Shown one piece after another: positions 7,153 to 44,767 of a stretch of DNA of 64,000 nt. The stretch lies in the IMG/VR virus record IMGVR_UViG_3300023179_000080, positions 10,284 through 74,283 of that record, one strand, 5' to 3'. This stretch comes from a virus. The position numbers and the translations under genes were made by a program. Each line of letters opens with the position of its first letter. The stretch's first letter is position 1. A model generated the notes under the pieces. That model was not told the DNA's origin and did no database searches. It saw only the letters and a program-made list of their open reading frames with translations.

Positions 7153-7498
7153 GGGTAACAAGGTCAAGAAGGGCGACGTCTACCTCATGTCGACCGGTTC
7201 CTCGGTCTTCTACATCCGCTCCCAACAGGAGCTGGATGCCCTGTACGAGGACGACCGCCGCCGGGGCGACACGCTTGACTCAGCGGGTGAACCCCGTATC
7301 CACAACCGCCAAGGTCGGATCCACTTCACAGAACCCACCACGGTCATGGTCGTCGGCCTGACCGGTGCACAGTGGGGCTCTTGGTACAACAAGCCCGTCG
7401 GACTGGTGCGAGCAGTTGTCACTTCCGGTCCCTCCCTGGGAAGGGAGGTCACGGTGACGAAGGCGGCATTGTTGGCTTCCGTGCAAAGTCACGGCTGA
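7142..7498 (+). CDS. hypothetical protein
   Basis: GC3-biased ORF. Confidence 0.65.
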   Translation: MKSKGNKVKKGDVYLMSTGSSVFYIRSQQELDALYEDDRRRGDTLDSAGEPRIHNRQGRIHFTEPTTVMVVGLTGAQWGSWYNKPVGLVRAVVTSGPSLGREVTVTKAALLASVQSHG

Positions 7499-7693: not shown

Positions 7694-7741
7694 TCCCCCG
7701 AACCAGTGCAAAGTTCAACCGCAAAGTGGTATAGTTAATCC

Positions 7742-9460: not shown

Positions 9461-9479
9461 CGTATTATCTATTGTTTAC

Positions 9480-9527
9480 GCAAAAACAAAAAGAAAGGAT
9501 ATCGGCCTTGTGCCGTAAGTTATTCAG
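9480..9527 (+). mobile_element. 48-bp IS200/IS605-family LE/RE fusion remnant (PATE-like scar)
   Basis: TTTAC|GCAAAAACAAAAAGAAAGGATATCGGCCTTGTGCCGTAAGTTATTCAG|; left part matches the left end and right part the right end of the tnpB element at 15746-16928. Confidence 0.85.
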
Positions 9528-10941: not shown

Positions 10942-10980
10942 GGCAATAAGTATCAAAATCGCTAACGAACTTGATTAAAA

Positions 10981-13698: not shown

Positions 13699-13780
13699 GT
13701 GACAAATTGTCACTTGTTGAAATTGACTTTCAACAAGCAGACCCTGTGCAAAGTTTGCCCTGACTGAGGTACAGTGAATC

Positions 13781-13984: not shown

Positions 13985-14026
13985 AAAGTCGTGCAAAGTT
14001 CGAACCGAAAGAGGTATACTAGAACC

Positions 14027-14239: not shown

Positions 14240-14974
14240 ATGGCAATCACCAAGACTTCCTACGACAGCAAGACGGGCACCACTGTGGAAGAGACCTATT
14301 TCGCAGGTCGAGTGATCGAGGTCCGCCACTTCACGGAGACCCGCAACTGGTCGTCCACCCTGGACTACTCGGACTACCGCTCCACGGAGTGCACCGAGGC
14401 CCTGGTCTGGCTGGGCACCCACAACTTCCCTCCTTACAGGAACACGACCAAGTCCGACCTGCGGGTGAACACGGGCTGCCTCAGCTCGGACGCCCACGGG
14501 ACTCGTCGCGACCTGGAGTTCTTCGAGCAGTTCGCCTGGGTGGACTGCACCAACCTCTTCTCGGACCGCAACGGCTTCGCCCTGTCGGCCGCCGTCGACG
14601 TGAGCCAGACGGATGGCTCGGAACCCCTCCTATGGGCCAACTACATCGCCTTCCAGGCGTACATGGCCGCGAAGGCCGAGGCCGCCGCCAAAGCCGCTGC
14701 AGAGGAGGCTCGCATCGCCCGTGAGGAGGCCGCTGCCCGAGCAGCTCGCAAGGCCAAGCTGGCCGCCAACCGTGCCGCCAAGGAAGTGCCCCTCCGCGCT
14801 GCGGCGGAAGCCCGCCTCCGTCAGGCTCCGGCCAAGGGCACCACGGTCACCGTGGATGGCTTCACCGGCCGGGTCTTCTGGGCCGGGGTCAACAAGTTCC
14901 GGGGCAACTTCAAGGCTTCCTACGGGGTCAAGGATGCCCGGGGCACCGTCCGGTGGGTGGAGATACCTGCTTGA
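14240..14974 (+). CDS. hypothetical protein with Ala-rich coiled coil and C-terminal SH3-like domain
   Basis: Early promoter at 14204; G.TGRVFW...GVKDARG...WV. Confidence 0.8.
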   Translation: MAITKTSYDSKTGTTVEETYFAGRVIEVRHFTETRNWSSTLDYSDYRSTECTEALVWLGTHNFPPYRNTTKSDLRVNTGCLSSDAHGTRRDLEFFEQFAWVDCTNLFSDRNGFALSAAVDVSQTDGSEPLLWANYIAFQAYMAAKAEAAAKAAAEEARIAREEAAARAARKAKLAANRAAKEVPLRAAAEARLRQAPAKGTTVTVDGFTGRVFWAGVNKFRGNFKASYGVKDARGTVRWVEIPA

Positions 14975-15453
14975 ACCCGCAGTTCCTTGCAGCGATGGCT
15001 GAGACAGCGTCGGGCATCGTCCTATCCGTGCGGAAGACGACAGACCGTGAGGCACGAAGAGGCCTCCTGAGCCTCCTGCTCACCCTATGCAGGGGGATGC
15101 AGGACGTCGCCCCGAGGAACGCCTCAACTCGTGCACAGGCAAGAGCTCACAAGCTCGGTCTGGGTGACCTGAGAGTGTACAACTTCTATGACGGTGCTCG
15201 GTTCCCGGGTGGACGTAAAGCATCGATGATGCACTGGGAGCATTGGAAGCCAGCAGTGGACCTCAGAAATGAGATCCTTGCACTGACAAGCCCGACTCCC
15301 TCTGCTGTGGAGGGTATCCTCAAGAATGCCCGGATTTGTTGGATCCTCTTGGAGGAGGCTGCATTCCTCAGGAAGCTGGGTCATAACACAGGTAGAGCCG
15401 ACCCCGCAGAGTCCTACAAGGCGGCGGGGATAGAGCTGGCATATCCTTGGTAG
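14971..15453 (+). CDS. hypothetical protein, possible HNH-like (beta-beta-alpha) fold
   Basis: HWEHWKP...ICWI..EE...L...RY-like tail. Confidence 0.55.
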   Translation: MNPQFLAAMAETASGIVLSVRKTTDREARRGLLSLLLTLCRGMQDVAPRNASTRAQARAHKLGLGDLRVYNFYDGARFPGGRKASMMHWEHWKPAVDLRNEILALTSPTPSAVEGILKNARICWILLEEAAFLRKLGHNTGRADPAESYKAAGIELAYPW

Positions 15454-15490
15454 TGTGTAAAGTCTCATCGAAATACGGTATAGTAGAACC

Positions 15491-15724
15491 ATGAACAAAG
15501 ACGCTCTCAAAATTGCTCTGGCACTGGAAGCTTCTGCGCGGCTCGTCGAGTCGGGTCGCAAAGACGTGGAGGTCCATTTCACAGAAGCTGAAGTGTTGTG
15601 GAGCGCGGCAGAATCCTTGGGTCTCGAAAAGGTGGTCGACAGCTACCTCTTTGGCTGGCAGATGGAGTCACGTAAGGCTGATTGTACAAATGCCGGCGTC
15701 GTCCCTGCTTCAAACATGAACTGA
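15491..15724 (+). CDS. hypothetical protein
   Basis: Early promoter at 15455. Confidence 0.7.
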   Translation: MNKDALKIALALEASARLVESGRKDVEVHFTEAEVLWSAAESLGLEKVVDSYLFGWQMESRKADCTNAGVVPASNMN

Positions 15725-15745
15725 CATGTGTGCAAAGTTCGGCCG

Positions 15746-16928
15746 CTGAATAACTTACGGCACAAGGCCGTAAGGTTCGAGGGTAGTCTTGCCTTCATCG
15801 ACTTTACCCTTTAGGGACTTCAGCTCGGATGATTGTGTCATCCTTCGGCCCTTCCTGCGAATCTCTTTCTTCACAGGATCGATCTTTGGGCGTAATGCGA
15901 TGTTGAAAGCTGCATTTACGTCCGCATGATCAATGTGTTCACAGTGCAAACAGTGAAACACTTTTCCATTTCTGCTCTCTTTATCAACTACTCCGCAACG
16001 AGAACATGAAGTTGATGTCCAAGCAGGATCAACAACATTCAACTCGACACCTTGCTCCTTAGCCTTGTAAGTGAGAAGCATTCTCACCTGATAGAATGGC
16101 CAAGAGTTCAAGGTGTGATTTCCTTGTTTACGGTACTTCTTCGTACAATCTTTTCTAATCCCAGAAAGATCTTCTAGCTTAATTCCAACTCCACTTTTCT
16201 TTGCTTCTTTGACTATTTTAGTTGTGATCTTGTGAATCGCATCAGTCGTCTTCCTTCTCTCACGATCCTTGATCTTCTTCAGCTGTGACCACTGCTTCTT
16301 CTCTTGCAGGTTCTGCCTGATATTCTTATACTTCTTCTTCAAGAAAGGAATCTGTTTTCCAAACTTCTGAACCTTGCCTGTAAGCGGATTTGCCACAACA
16401 ATGGAGTGAGAAGTTGAGTTAAGATCGATGCCGATGAAACTTTTAGGTTCATCGGCCTGTTGATCGGGGAAAGTCACGGAAACATAAGCCCATTTCTGAT
16501 CAATCTCGACTTGATTGAGTTTTGTCCAACCAGAAGGAAACCAACAGCGAAATTCTGCGTTGAGGCTTGGAATTCTTATTTTTCTAGTTTCTAGATCAAA
16601 CTTTAGATTTTGACCAGGAACAGTTAGCTTCACTCTCTTCGGGTTGATTGATTTGATCTTCTTGTTCAGTCCATATTTTCTAACGATCTGATTAGCAATC
16701 TCAGATTTTAGGCCAATGTGTTTGACGACTTTTGTTGAGACAAGACCATTTTCAAGAGCAAACTGCGCAACTTTAACTGCCTTCTCAAAGAGAGAAGAAT
16801 CAAAGTTCACACCATGCTTTACCTTGAACGTCTTGATCATCTCCATGATAAGTATCTTTACTTAAGAAAAATTTTAACAAAAATTCATGATATGGCACAA
16901 GGCCGATATCCTTTCTTTTTGTTGATGT
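15746..16928 (-). mobile_element. IS200/IS605-family (IS1341-like, tnpB-only) insertion sequence
   Basis: AT-rich island; subterminal hairpins CGGCCTTGTGCC at both ends; LE guide AAAG with TTTAC target; RE guide GAAC with TCAG end. Confidence 0.85.
15755..16846 (-). CDS. tnpB: TnpB RNA-guided endonuclease
   Basis: RuvC I GIDLN, RuvC II LEDL, TSTSCSRCG..CLHC Zn finger, RuvC III HADVNAAFNI. Confidence 0.93.
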   Translation of the reverse strand: MEMIKTFKVKHGVNFDSSLFEKAVKVAQFALENGLVSTKVVKHIGLKSEIANQIVRKYGLNKKIKSINPKRVKLTVPGQNLKFDLETRKIRIPSLNAEFRCWFPSGWTKLNQVEIDQKWAYVSVTFPDQQADEPKSFIGIDLNSTSHSIVVANPLTGKVQKFGKQIPFLKKKYKNIRQNLQEKKQWSQLKKIKDRERRKTTDAIHKITTKIVKEAKKSGVGIKLEDLSGIRKDCTKKYRKQGNHTLNSWPFYQVRMLLTYKAKEQGVELNVVDPAWTSTSCSRCGVVDKESRNGKVFHCLHCEHIDHADVNAAFNIALRPKIDPVKKEIRRKGRRMTQSSELKSLKGKVDEGKTTLEPYGLVP

Positions 16929-16965
16929 GTAAAGCATAGTGTGGGACCTCAGGGTGGAAAATGTG

Positions 16966-17235
16966 ATGGGTGCCTATTTCAACCGCAGCGGCAAAATATT
17001 CCTCGGCCTGATGGGAGTTCAGCTCCTCAGTGCGATCTACGATGCATACAGACAATCAGCCGACGCAGCTGCGAATCCGACTCGCGACATGGATGATGAA
17101 TCAAAAGTCCTGTACTATACACTGCTGCAGTTCCGCCGCAATGATGATTGGTCAGGCTACAACAAGTTCTGCGATCAATGCACTCCCCCCGTTCCCATGG
17201 ACGAGCGCCTTCGTATGTGGGAACGCCTTGCTTGA
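16966..17235 (+). CDS. hypothetical protein
   Basis: ORF downstream of the IS; its promoter is split by the IS. Confidence 0.6.
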   Translation: MGAYFNRSGKIFLGLMGVQLLSAIYDAYRQSADAAANPTRDMDDESKVLYYTLLQFRRNDDWSGYNKFCDQCTPPVPMDERLRMWERLA

Positions 17236-17336
17236 GTCGTTGACAGTGAAAGGGTACACTGAGAGTATGAGAGTATGAGAGATCTGAGCTTCAGCGACTT
17301 CCTCCACAACATCTCGGTCCGAGAGGACGGTGGCCA

Positions 17337-17558
17337 ATGACCTGGGACTACCGCGTCCTGTCCCGGACCACTGCGTCGGGCGGGGAGACCTGGTTGGGCA
17401 TCTACGAGGTCTACTACGACGCAGACGGCAACCCCGTGAACTGCTCGGAGACCGAGGTGTCCCCCTACGGCGAGACTCTGGAGGAGCTCCTTGCCGACCT
17501 GAAGAGGTTCACTGCGGCAGTGGAGAAACCCGTGCTTCGGTGGGAGGACTTCACCTGA
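17337..17558 (+). CDS. conserved phage hypothetical protein
   Basis: MTWDYRV...IYEVYYD..G...P.GETLEEL..DL..AVEKPVL. Confidence 0.8.
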   Translation: MTWDYRVLSRTTASGGETWLGIYEVYYDADGNPVNCSETEVSPYGETLEELLADLKRFTAAVEKPVLRWEDFT

Positions 17559-17594
17559 GCGCAGAGTCGATCATGAAAGAGGTACAGTAAGGAC

Positions 17595-17795
17595 ATGGAT
17601 AAGATCAACAAGTTCTTCGACTCAGACTTGCCTGGTGTCTTGCTCATCATGGGCGGGCCGCTCCTCGCAGTGATGTTTGTTGCCCCAGATGCTCGGACGG
17701 GTGTCACTGCAGTCGGGGTCGCGTGCACTATTCCCTTCATTGCTGCGATCGTCTTCCGCACTGTGCTGGCAATCGTTGGGAGCGAAGATCGCTGA
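17595..17795 (+). CDS. small membrane protein
   Basis: AAGGA RBS; two TM segments. Confidence 0.65.
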   Translation: MDKINKFFDSDLPGVLLIMGGPLLAVMFVAPDARTGVTAVGVACTIPFIAAIVFRTVLAIVGSEDR

Positions 17796-17835
17796 CCCAG
17801 TGCAAAGTCGCCCTCGAACGTGGTATGGTTAACTC

Positions 17836-19053
17836 ATGATAGCGATTGTGAAGGACGGGCGCCGGCCCATCAAGATGTGGGTCGAGGGTGTTCCTGTCGA
17901 AGAGCAGGCCGTACAGCAGCTCGAGCGGATTGCAGCTCTTCCCTTCGTCGGCCCGCACGTGGCAGTGATGCCCGACGTGCACCTGGGCAAAGGCGCGACG
18001 GTGGGCTCTGCGGTCCCGACGTCGGGTGCGGTGGTGCCCGCGGCGGTCGGAGTCGACATCGGCTGTGGGATGATCGCCGTGCGCACGTCGATGACGTCGC
18101 ACGATCTGCCTGATGACCTGTCGGGCCTGCGATCGGCGATCGAGGCCGCGGTTCCCCACGGTCGAACGGACGACGGAGGTCGCCACGATCGAGGCCGGTG
18201 GGGTGACGTGCCTGACACGGTGGCTTCGGTTTGGACGGACCTCCAGCCCGGTTGGCAGCGGATCCTCGAGAAGCACCCGAAGGTCCACGGCCGGTCGGGA
18301 GTCACGGCGGAGCACTTGGGCACGCTGGGGACGGGCAACCACTTCATCGAGCTGTGCCTCGACGAGGCTGACCGCGTCTGGGTGATGCTGCACTCGGGCT
18401 CGCGAGGGGTGGGCAACCGCATCGGCTCCTACTTCATCGAGCGTGCGAAGGAGGAGATGAAACGGTGGTACATCAACCTGCCCGACCAGGACCTTGCTTA
18501 CCTGCCCGAGGGCTCGCAGCTCTTCGGAGACTACGTTGAGGCGGTGGGTTGGGCTCAGGAGTACGCATCTGCCAACCGCCAGCTCATGTTGGCGGCTGCC
18601 GTCCGCGCGATGAAGGGCCACCTCCGGCCCAAGTTCGACCTGACGGACGATGCGGTGAACTGCCACCACAACTACATCTCCAAGGAGCACCACTTCGGCG
18701 AGAACCTGTGGGTGACGCGGAAGGGTGCCGTGTCGGCACGCGCCGGCCAGATGGGCATCATCCCGGGTTCCATGGGAACGCGGTCGTACATCGTCCGGGG
18801 CAAGGGCAACGCGGACTCACTGTGCTCGTGCTCGCACGGTGCGGGTCGCCGGATGTCCCGAGCAGAGGCACAGCGGACGTTCACGCTGGCGGACCACCGT
18901 GCTGCCACGGAGGGTGTCGAGTGCCGCAAGGACCGCGAGGTGATCGACGAGACGCCCGCCGCGTACAAGGACATCGATCAGGTGATGGCAGCGCAGGCCG
19001 ACCTCGTCGAGGTCGTGCACACGCTCAAACAAGTGCTCTGCGTGAAAGGCTGA
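17836..19053 (+). CDS. rtcB: RtcB RNA ligase
   Basis: MPDVHLGKG, VGVDIGCG, LGTLGTGNHFIE, HSGSRG, HNY, SCSHGAGR, DETPAAYKDI. Confidence 0.97.
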   Translation: MIAIVKDGRRPIKMWVEGVPVEEQAVQQLERIAALPFVGPHVAVMPDVHLGKGATVGSAVPTSGAVVPAAVGVDIGCGMIAVRTSMTSHDLPDDLSGLRSAIEAAVPHGRTDDGGRHDRGRWGDVPDTVASVWTDLQPGWQRILEKHPKVHGRSGVTAEHLGTLGTGNHFIELCLDEADRVWVMLHSGSRGVGNRIGSYFIERAKEEMKRWYINLPDQDLAYLPEGSQLFGDYVEAVGWAQEYASANRQLMLAAAVRAMKGHLRPKFDLTDDAVNCHHNYISKEHHFGENLWVTRKGAVSARAGQMGIIPGSMGTRSYIVRGKGNADSLCSCSHGAGRRMSRAEAQRTFTLADHRAATEGVECRKDREVIDETPAAYKDIDQVMAAQADLVEVVHTLKQVLCVKG

Positions 19054-20264: not shown

Positions 20265-20357
20265 GCATATAAGTATGTGTACGGCAACAAAACAGGATAC
20301 CATAGGGGATAATATGCTGTTGTCAGTATATACCGCCACCAACCATAAGGGGCGCAT

Positions 20358-24280: not shown

Positions 24281-24730
24281 ATGGGACTAGAAAGTACTAG
24301 ATCCGATTCAACAGGGTTGTTGCTCATCTCGAGCGTCGTCTTTGGTACATGTGCTACACTATTGAGAAAATTAGCCGCAGGCAAGATTCACCCATTCCAA
24401 TTTGAGGCAATTACCGGTACGACCCATGCGATCATTGGGTGGGTTTGCTTGTACTATGCAGTATCCAACAACCTCGTGGGAGAACCACGGGGTCTGGGTA
24501 TGTTGTGGGCAATGCTTCAAGCCATCTTTAGCTGTGCAATGGGAATATCATTCATGTACATGCTTCGTGCCGGCGCCGAGGTCGGATATTCATCAACCAT
24601 TAGTTCCACTGCAATGACTGCTCTTACGATACTCGGATCTCGTTTTATACTGGGGGAGGTCCTGACACCCAGGATGCTGTTAGGGGCAATCATAATGATT
24701 GTTGGTGTGGCCATCGCAACCTTCAAGTAA
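24281..24730 (+). CDS. EamA/DMT-family membrane protein
   Basis: 5 TM; ILGEVLT...LGAIIMIVGV. Confidence 0.75.
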   Translation: MGLESTRSDSTGLLLISSVVFGTCATLLRKLAAGKIHPFQFEAITGTTHAIIGWVCLYYAVSNNLVGEPRGLGMLWAMLQAIFSCAMGISFMYMLRAGAEVGYSSTISSTAMTALTILGSRFILGEVLTPRMLLGAIIMIVGVAIATFK

Positions 24731-24742
24731 TACTTAAAGTCC

Positions 24743-37185: not shown

Positions 37186-37368
37186 TCGGGTTATTCTGAG
37201 GCCATCTGAGGGTCTTCGGGGGCCAACAAGAATGGGGTCGACGGACTATAAGGTGCTGCTGTGCAGCATTTGTGCACAGCAAATTGTGATCGACAATTTG
37301 TCGTAGACGATTGTATTTATTTTGACGACACCGTGCAAACTCACGGTCCTCCGTGGTAGGGTATACTC

Positions 37369-38673
37369 ATGATGACACCTTGTGACACCGAGTTCAATCT
37401 CGACCGGCACCTCATCTCGTTCCTACAGGACAACCCGTTCTTTGCGGAACTGAGCCGCCACATCCACAAGTCGCCCACCAAGTCGATCCCGACGGCGGCA
37501 GTTGCGTTCAACGAGAAGACCGACGAGCTCACCCTCTGGTGGAATCCCGAGTTCTTCGGCAAGCTGTCCCAGTGGGAAGTCCGTGGCGTGCTCACCCACG
37601 AATTCTACCACCTCGTGTTCGGCCACCTGTACGGCCGCCGGCGCAATCCGCCCAAGCTGTGGAACGTGGCGACCGACCTGGCCATCAACTCGATCATCAT
37701 GGGATCTGCCAAGAACGGCAGCCGCCTCGATGGCGATCGCCCGCTTCCCGAGTTCTGCCTCATGCCCGGCGTGATGCCGAAGCATCCGGAAGGCCGCGAT
37801 TACACCGACGAGGAGAAGTCGGCGATGCCGCTCGCGGCGGTGATCGCGAAGCTCCCGACCATGCAGGCGTCGGAGTGGTACTTCGACAAGATCAAGCAGG
37901 AAATGCAGGACCAGCCCGACAACGGCATGGGCCAAGGCGAGGGCAGCCTCGACTCGATGGACGACCACAACGGTTGGGACGAAGTCCCGGACGAACTCCG
38001 CGAGTACGTGGAAGGCAAGGTCAAGTCGATCGTCGAAAAAGCGGCGAAGCACGCCGACTCGCAGGCGAACGGCTGGGGTAACATCCCGGCGGACATGGTC
38101 GACGCAATCCGCAAGTCGGTGTCGTCGGTCATCAACTGGCGCAATGTGCTACGCCAGTTCGTCGGTTCGCTGGTCCGCGGCGGCCGTAGCACCTCGATCA
38201 AACGCATCAACAAGCGTTACCCCTACATCCACCCGGGAGTGAAGCGTGGCTACGAGGCGAAGCTCCTCATTGCGATCGACCAGTCGGGCTCGGTGAGCAA
38301 CGAGATGCTCGCAGAGTTCTTCGCGGAGCTCGGGTCCCTCACCAAGAAGGTGACGATCGACGTCCTTCCGTTCGACTGCGAGGCCCATGACAAGGACATC
38401 TACACGTGGCGCAAGGGTGCGAACATCCCGGGCAAGCGAGTCCGCGGCGGCGGCACGGACTTCAACGCTCCCACTCGACTCGCCAACGATCCCAAGAATC
38501 GAGGCCGGTGGGACGGATTTTTGTGTCTCACGGATGGGGAAGCTTCTGCGCCTATTCCTAGCCGAATTAAGCGGGGGTGGGTCCTTGGCAAAGGTTGTAA
38601 ACTGCTCTTCAAGACGGACGAGATTCAGGTCCACATGACGGACCAGAAGGCCGCAGAGGGTGCCTGGCGCTGA
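37369..38673 (+). CDS. DUF2201 metallopeptidase + vWA domain protein
   Basis: LTHEFYH, WNVATDLAIN, DQSGS, GGGTDF, LTDG. Confidence 0.9.
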   Translation: MMTPCDTEFNLDRHLISFLQDNPFFAELSRHIHKSPTKSIPTAAVAFNEKTDELTLWWNPEFFGKLSQWEVRGVLTHEFYHLVFGHLYGRRRNPPKLWNVATDLAINSIIMGSAKNGSRLDGDRPLPEFCLMPGVMPKHPEGRDYTDEEKSAMPLAAVIAKLPTMQASEWYFDKIKQEMQDQPDNGMGQGEGSLDSMDDHNGWDEVPDELREYVEGKVKSIVEKAAKHADSQANGWGNIPADMVDAIRKSVSSVINWRNVLRQFVGSLVRGGRSTSIKRINKRYPYIHPGVKRGYEAKLLIAIDQSGSVSNEMLAEFFAELGSLTKKVTIDVLPFDCEAHDKDIYTWRKGANIPGKRVRGGGTDFNAPTRLANDPKNRGRWDGFLCLTDGEASAPIPSRIKRGWVLGKGCKLLFKTDEIQVHMTDQKAAEGAWR

Positions 38674-44751: not shown

Positions 44752-44767
44752 GGTCTCTAAGTATGCG

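Follow-up and report, generated by a model that had tools for sequence, protein, structure and literature searches.

The 64,000-nucleotide stretch of DNA analysed here (the window), which is the last 64 kb of the 74,283-bp IMG/VR virus record IMGVR_UViG_3300023179_000080 (estimated completeness 23%), contains an insertion sequence (IS) of 1183 bp that, judging by its sequence, is a tnpB-only member of the IS200/IS605 family with IS608-type ends. Taken as a whole, the best explanation, to which we assign a probability of roughly 70%, is that this element was inserted by the IS608-type route into the spacer of a phage promoter, is mobile in trans, and encodes a TnpB nuclease that would home to uninterrupted copies of the promoter while sparing the occupied one. 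The element type is already known, and this is a well-documented case of it.

Other genes of the window code for a DNA ligase, an HNH endonuclease, and proteins of the tail fibre and baseplate. The G+C content is ~40% at 15.7-16.9 kb, where the IS lies, and 53–60% on either side. A megablast search of 14700-18000 against GenBank phages gave no match.

Ends, target, and boundaries of the element

The original prediction had placed a tnpB element with deducible ends at 15746-16928; coordinates and ends are correct, and eight further sites agree with them. The parts of the element that bear on its insertion are as follows.

15746-16928, minus strand: tnpB-only IS200/IS605 element, 1183 bp (from sequence and the same ends at eight other sites)
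16929-16933, minus strand: insertion target TTTAC (left cleavage site CL, TTAC, plus an extra T), predicted TnpB target-adjacent motif (TAM), found at 9/9 sites
16889-16914, minus strand: left-end recognition module, with left guide GL AAAG at 16911-16914 and an imperfect hairpin at 16889-16910
15746-15778, minus strand: right-end recognition module, with right guide GR GAAC at 15775-15778, a hairpin at 15754-15774, and right cleavage site CR TCAG at 15746-15749

Read along the minus strand, the layout is GCTTTAC/ACATCAAC-AAAAAG-AAAG-left hairpin-tnpB-GAAC-right hairpin-TTATTCAG/CGGCCGAACTTTGCAC, where the slashes mark the boundaries. The left hairpin (GATATcGGC-CTTGT-GCCATATC) has AAAG directly 5' of it, and its foot lies 18 nt from the left cleavage point, with cleavage on the 5' side. 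The right hairpin (CTTACGGC-CTTGT-GCCGTAAG), which contains the tnpB stop codon, has GAAC directly 5' of it and is followed by TTATTCAG, so that the terminal TCAG ends 8 nt past the hairpin. Besides the two ends of the IS, where it is found once each, the hairpin core GGCCTTGTGCC has a third copy in the window at 9504-9514.

In IS608, the left guide AAAG recognises a cleavage site, TTAC, that is external to the element and 19 nt 5' of the hairpin foot; the right guide GAAT recognises TCAA, which is part of the element and is situated 10 nt 3' of its hairpin (PMC3201880, PMC5934647). The window IS has the same left pair, AAAG/TTAC, and its right pair GAAC/TCAG differs from GAAT/TCAA by a compensatory change, A to G in the cleavage site and T to C in the guide. 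Relatives covary in the same manner: an autonomous element in the related complete phage G001 has CAAG/TGAC, two 58–60% identical elements have GATC/TCAG, and tnpA-tnpB relatives have GAAC with TCAG, 10 nt beyond the hairpin. The sequence thus fits the IS608-type guide and cleavage pairing originally proposed (AAAG with TTTAC, GAAC with TCAG), with cleavage at these positions being predicted.

Nine sites of this IS family were compared, two in the window and seven found elsewhere by scans with a right-end 24-mer and in the contigs of sequencing runs.

Window, 15746-16928: full copy described above
Window, 9480-9527, plus strand: 48-nt left-end/right-end fusion, with TTTAC at 9475-9479 and ending in TTATTCAG
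G001 (also G002 and a JGI twin): full copy, 92% identical, 5' flank CTTTAC
L019: full copy, 5' flank TTTTAC
Runs X3/X4: full copy, 5' flank CTTTAC
L007, 4520-4567: fusion, 5' flank TTTTAC
L020, 2585-2632: fusion, 5' flank GTTTAC
L023, 5610-5657: fusion, 5' flank ATTTAC
L022, minus strand: fusion, 5' flank GTTTAC

TTTAC stands directly 5' of the left end at all nine independent sites, as well as in a 58% identical relative, which bears out the suggestion of a TTTAC- or TTAC-like target, its role as a TAM being predicted. The T at position -5 of the target is conserved in 9/9, more than the AAAG/TTAC pairing would dictate. All nine sites have the 3' end TTATTCAG, unrelated flanks, no target-site duplication, and no terminal inverted repeats. 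A search for shared 10-mers in the regions up- and downstream of distant TnpB relatives was uninformative for locating ends.

The split promoter and the gene behind it

In silico deletion of 15746-16928 joins the two halves of a promoter as GTGCAA-AGTTCGGCCGGTAAAGCA-TAGTGT, with a spacer of 18 nt; in the occupied allele the two boxes are now 1.2 kb apart. By its sequence, the element was inserted into this spacer as single-stranded DNA, on the 3' side of TTTAC.

15730-15735, plus strand: -35 box GTGCAA of the split promoter (family alignment and position weight matrix)
16937-16942, plus strand: -10 box TAGTGT of the split promoter (family alignment and position weight matrix)
16966-17235, plus strand: downstream open reading frame (ORF) of 89 aa whose promoter is split; its ~20-nt leader contains a GGTGGA Shine-Dalgarno-like motif, unlike the promoter family

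The 18-nt spacer also bears on the left boundary. Because the first 6–8 nt past TTTAC vary among copies, a boundary 6–8 nt further in was considered; it was rejected because it would make the promoter spacer 24 nt long and leave the fixed distance to TTTAC unexplained. A spacer of 18 nt arises only if the element begins directly after TTTAC, and thus provides a second, independent confirmation of the boundary.

The restored sequence belongs to a leaderless promoter family with at least 18 plus-strand sites in the window, of the form GTGCAA(AGT)-18 nt-TA(T/G)(A/G)(G/C)T-6 nt-ATG and without a Shine-Dalgarno sequence. The family spans 2299-37333, all on the plus strand and each ahead of a small gene; examples are found at 7481, 7706, 7892, 8355, 8769, 13991, 14204, 15455, 17559, 17800, and 19130. 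With a weight matrix built from 14 members, the restored promoter scores 19.7 bits and ranks 18th of 127,922 positions (members, 17.5–39.1 bits; best non-member, 12.1 bits), and the two halves in the occupied allele give 7.0 and -36.6 bits. The exact pattern GTGCAA-N16-19-TAGTGT is found nowhere else in the window, and the -10 box is unique in the family. At the restored site, TCA occupies the position 6 nt past the -10 box where every other member has ATG, the next in-frame ATG being at 16966, and GCA precedes the -10 box where the family has TGG. Removal of the IS was said to restore a perfect family member; it does restore GTGCAA-18 nt-TAGTGT, but the low-end score, the weak -10 box, and the lack of the ATG do not agree with the word perfect.

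The dedicated promoter of the gene at 16966 is very probably dead, judging from the separation of its -35 and -10 boxes and from a left end that provides no substitute. Read-through from the family promoter at 15455, running antisense through tnpB, may nevertheless reach this gene. The two ORFs neighbouring the IS have no relatives in IMG/VR or in the complete phage G001, so that no orthologous uninterrupted locus could be found.

We also removed in silico the fusions of L023 and L022, which leaves GT/GTAA or CT/GTAA followed by 18 nt ending in GTGG, and, after these 18 nt, a TAGTAT or GATAGG box. Other insertions of the family may also lie within promoter-like sequences, since the complement of TTTAC occurs in a -35 variant, GTGTAAAG.

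TnpB, the predicted omegaRNA, and its guide

The coding and predicted RNA features of the element overlap at its right end.

15755-16846, minus strand: tnpB coding sequence, 363 aa; the coordinates take in the stop codon at 15755-15757
16848-16855, minus strand: ATACTTAT motif, 1 nt ahead of the tnpB ATG and inside the left end; kept in the G001 copy
15746-15885, minus strand: predicted omegaRNA scaffold, within the 3' end of tnpB (covariation)
15730-15745, minus strand: predicted 16-nt guide template CGGCCGAACTTTGCAC, assigned by its position directly 3' of the IS

The protein matches the Pfam profile PF07282 (Cas12f1-like_TNB, 9e-21) and, weakly, OrfB_IS605, and its best relatives of solved structure in the PDB are Cas12f and TnpB proteins. 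The RuvC residues D141, E225, and D309, predicted to be intact, are indeed invariant together with the zinc-finger cysteines C281, C284, C299, and C302 in 27 homologues, the most distant of which are 45% identical. In an alignment with a solved Cas12f, AsCas12f, the counterparts of E225 and D309 are its RuvC Glu and Asp. Between the window and G001, tnpB codons differ by 46 synonymous and 29 non-synonymous changes, with 19 and 3, respectively, over residues 200–320; by these counts the nuclease is under purifying selection in two diverged phages.

Metagenomic copies of this TnpB are 81–92% identical to it (81–91% for proteins P0002-P0007), and its wider clade is encoded at 73 IMG/VR loci. In a large protein set, its closest named cellular relatives are archaeal, at 47–50% identity (Thermoplasma, Methanosarcina, Thorarchaeota, and Parvarchaeota), whereas the carrier phage has -35/-10 promoters of bacterial type. 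The best relative among GTDB species genomes is 30% identical, so no host can be inferred. An internally deleted relative is found at L073:1201-1724, in which a 57% identical tnpB breaks off after ~183 codons and continues directly with the last ~60 nt of an omegaRNA/right-end region, ending in AAATTCAG.

The motif ahead of tnpB recurs in the window at 1–8 nt from start codons. ATACTTAT also stands just ahead of the ATGs at 20276 and 10953 (20269-20276 and 10946-10953, both minus strand), and ATACTTA stands ahead of those at 44764 (44757-44764, minus strand) and 24730 (24730-24737, plus strand). The looser pattern ATANTTA-N1-8-ATG is found 14 times, compared with 3.6 in shuffled sequences, an excess partly due to the -10 boxes of the presumed early promoters. 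ATACTTA(T) is thus a candidate for a second, phage-type promoter or start motif, which may also drive tnpB.

The last ~80–140 nt of the element fit an omegaRNA scaffold that would lie wholly inside the coding 3' end. Support is best for a core made up of the final ~78 nt (15746-15823), in which a CUGAA...UUCAG helix forms the closing stem; a variable hairpin is found at 15827-15843. RNAalifold applied to four sequences predicts 24 pairs, 8 of them with compensatory changes, in which the terminal UUCAG pairs with a CUGAA ~75 nt upstream. Over the last 53 codons of tnpB, the window and G001 show 0 synonymous changes where ~8 are expected; the sole variable spot there is a hairpin with two compensatory pairs, GGATGA/TCATCC in one copy and GGACGG/CCGTCC in the other. 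Folding the region as a single sequence gives z = -3.7. A permissive Rfam scan of 15000-17500 returned no match apart from a sub-threshold snoRNA-like hit, taken to be due to chance.

On the opposite strand, the guide template CGGCCGAACTTTGCAC reads as the -35 box GTGCAA followed by 10 nt of the spacer; its 16-nt length is assumed from ISDra2. The predicted guide therefore includes the promoter -35 box, as had been proposed.

Copies, fusions, and the probable source of transposase

The absence of tnpA in cis defines the tnpB-only subgroup. There is no match to TnpA (PF01797) in the IS or in the whole 74,283-bp record, so the earlier statement that no tnpA is present holds for this ~23% complete fragment. 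It does not extend beyond the fragment, as G001, a complete related phage whose 297,894-bp genome has terminal repeats, carries not only the 92% identical IS copy but also an autonomous IS605-type element.

L015:1400-3080 (G001 ~63.2-64.8 kb): autonomous element of G001, 11 kb from the G001 copy of the window IS

This element contains a tnpA of 146 aa (PF01797, 2e-37) divergent from a 393-aa tnpB whose product is 35% identical to the window TnpB. Its left end has a hairpin core GGCCTTGTGCC identical to that of the window IS and an AAAG-type guide, while its right end has the CAAG/TGAC pair noted above; its left flank has no clear TTAC at the expected distance, TTAT being the nearest fit. The window IS is probably moved in trans by the Y1 transposase TnpA of an autonomous tnpA-tnpB element that shares its hairpin core; mobilisation by a phage-borne TnpA of this kind would be the simplest reading.

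The window IS and its G001 copy are 92% identical in nucleotides, whereas a shared 1173-aa structural protein is 54% identical. This disparity, together with the different loci and guides of the copies, points to recent movement between phages by transposition. Stretches of L019 and L022 are 65–70% identical to G001, which, with the structural protein that the window shares with G001, places all copies in one group of freshwater jumbo phages. A small IS family would be circulating in this clade.

Fusions account for 5/9 sites. They are 48–49 nt long and are joined at the shared 11-nt hairpin core, retaining AAAG but lacking GAAC, so that their right cleavage site would be unguided. As they lack this right guide, the fusions are more likely products of recurrent deletion between direct copies of the core than of transposition as miniature elements, although two identical fusions on one 15.7-kb contig (L020 and L023) mean that miniature-element transposition may also occur. 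Since a fusion puts TTTAC 48 nt from the former target, it would be immune to the TnpB of a sibling.

The window contains a second candidate for a selfish nuclease in the same genome, an HNH endonuclease of 434 aa at 37369-38673 on the plus strand (PHROG 1314, 1e-48), which lies behind the family promoter at 37333.

Proposed action of TnpB and alternative explanations

We propose that the omegaRNA would be made together with TnpB, as an RNA spanning the 3' end of tnpB, the right end, and part of the flank. The complex would recognise TTTAC followed by CGGCCGAACTTTGCAC, a combination that would be present only in the uninterrupted promoter and is missing from the 74-kb record. Its targets would be genomes without the IS, either sister copies after excision or co-infecting siblings, and recombinational repair would then copy the IS back into the cut genome. 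The occupied site would be protected, as the right end provides TTCAG where TTTAC would stand. The cutting of IS-free siblings would follow from the published TnpB mechanism: homing is described for bacterial IS605 elements (PMC10055086, PMC10690162), and a 2026 review has extended 'non-restorative homing', in theory, to co-infecting phages (PMC13565253). This mechanistic reading is the standard one for the family, applied to a phage.

Several points weigh against this proposal. The empty allele, which the original prediction had suggested seeking in relatives, did not turn up: the predicted joint is GTGCAAAGTTCGGCCG/GTAAAGCATAGTGT, a 22-mer across it is absent from IMG/VR and JGI metagenome contigs, and neither empty allele nor excision joint was found in these or in the contigs of four sequencing runs, which drop rare variants and are uninformative on a minority empty allele. 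The record lacks TnpA. The full copies lie at different loci with different guides, indicating spread between lineages by transposition and not by homing. The restored promoter is weak and without the family start codon, so that the insertion may be of little cost and its site of little importance. Moreover, the TAM and the guide length are predictions, and the omegaRNA and the expression of tnpB are known as sequence predictions.

The proposal could be extended to an IS family adapted to jumbo phages, acting as an RNA-guided gene drive among co-infecting phages, with the fusions as drive-resistant alleles. The phage-borne TnpA, the phage-type start motif, the guide directed at the uninterrupted allele, and the nuclease-less fusions all suggest this extension, which we nonetheless put forward tentatively and consider doubtful.

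It is also possible, though unlikely, that the element is a passive passenger: a recent neutral or slightly harmful insertion whose TnpB and RNA are inconsequential during infection and which persists through its youth. A passenger would be expected to resemble what is seen in several respects, with no empty allele in the three sets of contigs, no tnpA in the record, a weak family promoter split ahead of an orphan 89-aa ORF, and 5/9 sites collapsed to 48–49-nt remnants, so that elements are often lost. However, the RuvC half of TnpB is under purifying selection (synonymous changes, 19; non-synonymous changes, 3), the omegaRNA region is constrained at the nucleotide level and shows compensatory changes, the phage-type motif directly ahead of the ATG is kept in both copies, and the same occupied allele is found in two independent studies.

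A domesticated regulator, in which TnpB and its RNA bind phage promoters and regulate a cassette regulon without cutting, is very improbable. Because the guide contains the conserved -35 box, its only near matches in the window are sibling promoters (7706-7721, with 2/16 mismatches; 13746-13761 and 13991-14006, with 3 each), the TAM-distal 10 nt of the guide being the conserved GTGCAAAGTT box common to many promoters. TnpB-derived RNA-guided transcription factors do exist (PMC10705468). However, TTTAC precedes none of the near-cognate promoters, and their mismatches fall in the TAM-proximal seed. The catalytic D/E/D residues are intact and invariant, unlike those of the known nuclease-dead regulators; both transposon ends are intact; and the other full copies have unrelated sequence at the guide position.

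Finally, a chimeric assembly of a low-G+C mobile element with a phage contig can be dismissed, because, despite the sharp drop in G+C at the IS and the breaks near repeat ends in the source-run contigs (X1 records 1, 4, and 5), contigs of a second, independent study (X2 records 11 and 13) contain the same occupied allele and bridge both junctions without differences, so that the insertion is genuine and occurs in more than a single sample, and its boundaries match the TnpA cleavage sites to the base and restore the 18-nt spacer.

Comparison with known systems

The closest model for the ends is IS608 of Helicobacter pylori, with which the window IS shares the features of single-strand 'peel and paste' transposition: insertion 3' of TTAC, the left guide AAAG, the right pairing rule, subterminal imperfect hairpins with an extrahelical base, and the lack of terminal inverted repeats and target duplication. 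The cleavage distances are 18 + 8 nt here and 19 + 10 nt in IS608. The window IS differs in lacking tnpA, in having TCAG/GAAC in place of TCAA/GAAT, in the fifth target base T, and in its phage carriers, and its TnpB belongs to a clade whose closest named cellular members are the archaeal proteins at 47–50% identity.

Homing by TnpB with its omegaRNA is reportedly known from ISDra2, through work by Karvelis in 2021. Homing by tnpB-only/IS605 elements is described for Geobacillus (Meers 2023, PMC10055086). The window IS has in common with ISDra2 and the Geobacillus IS605 elements the RuvC D/E/D residues and zinc finger, a structured RNA over the tnpB 3' end and right end, a guide templated by the flank, a TAM equal to the target motif, and self-protection by the right end, the RNA-guided features being predicted here. 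The match to the ISDra2 TnpB itself is marginal (E = 1e-4). Unlike in these elements, the stop codon lies inside the right-end hairpin, so that the whole scaffold is coding, and the window element is known from sequence alone.

TnpB genes have been found in phages before, in cyanophage A-1(L) (bioRxiv 10.64898/2026.02.14.705889) and in megaphages (PMC12607003). Like these, and as in the proposal of PMC13565253, the window IS is phage-borne and has an element-free sibling allele as its predicted target. It differs in that its two ends, target motif, and guide can all be assigned, along with a matching TnpA carried by a phage; moreover, host copies identical to that of A-1(L) exist, whereas the family of the window IS is known to date from phage-like contigs only.

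The predicted outcome, in which a competitor is cut and repaired from the carrier, is the same as for phage homing endonucleases, such as T4 Seg/Mob and the intron endonuclease in jumbo-phage competition cited in PMC13565253. Unlike these, the window IS would use an RNA guide and a TAM in place of protein recognition, and it keeps its transposon ends and can move.

TnpB in phages is already known (PMC12607003; bioRxiv 10.64898/2026.02.14.705889), and the window IS leaves our understanding of how such elements work unchanged. It adds a 363-aa TnpB with a predicted TTTAC TAM from a little-characterised clade. With its TnpA modules, target/TAM, guide, candidate trans transposase, and decay products readable to the base, it is a convenient natural test case for TnpB homing between co-infecting phages, a process that to date is no more than a proposal.

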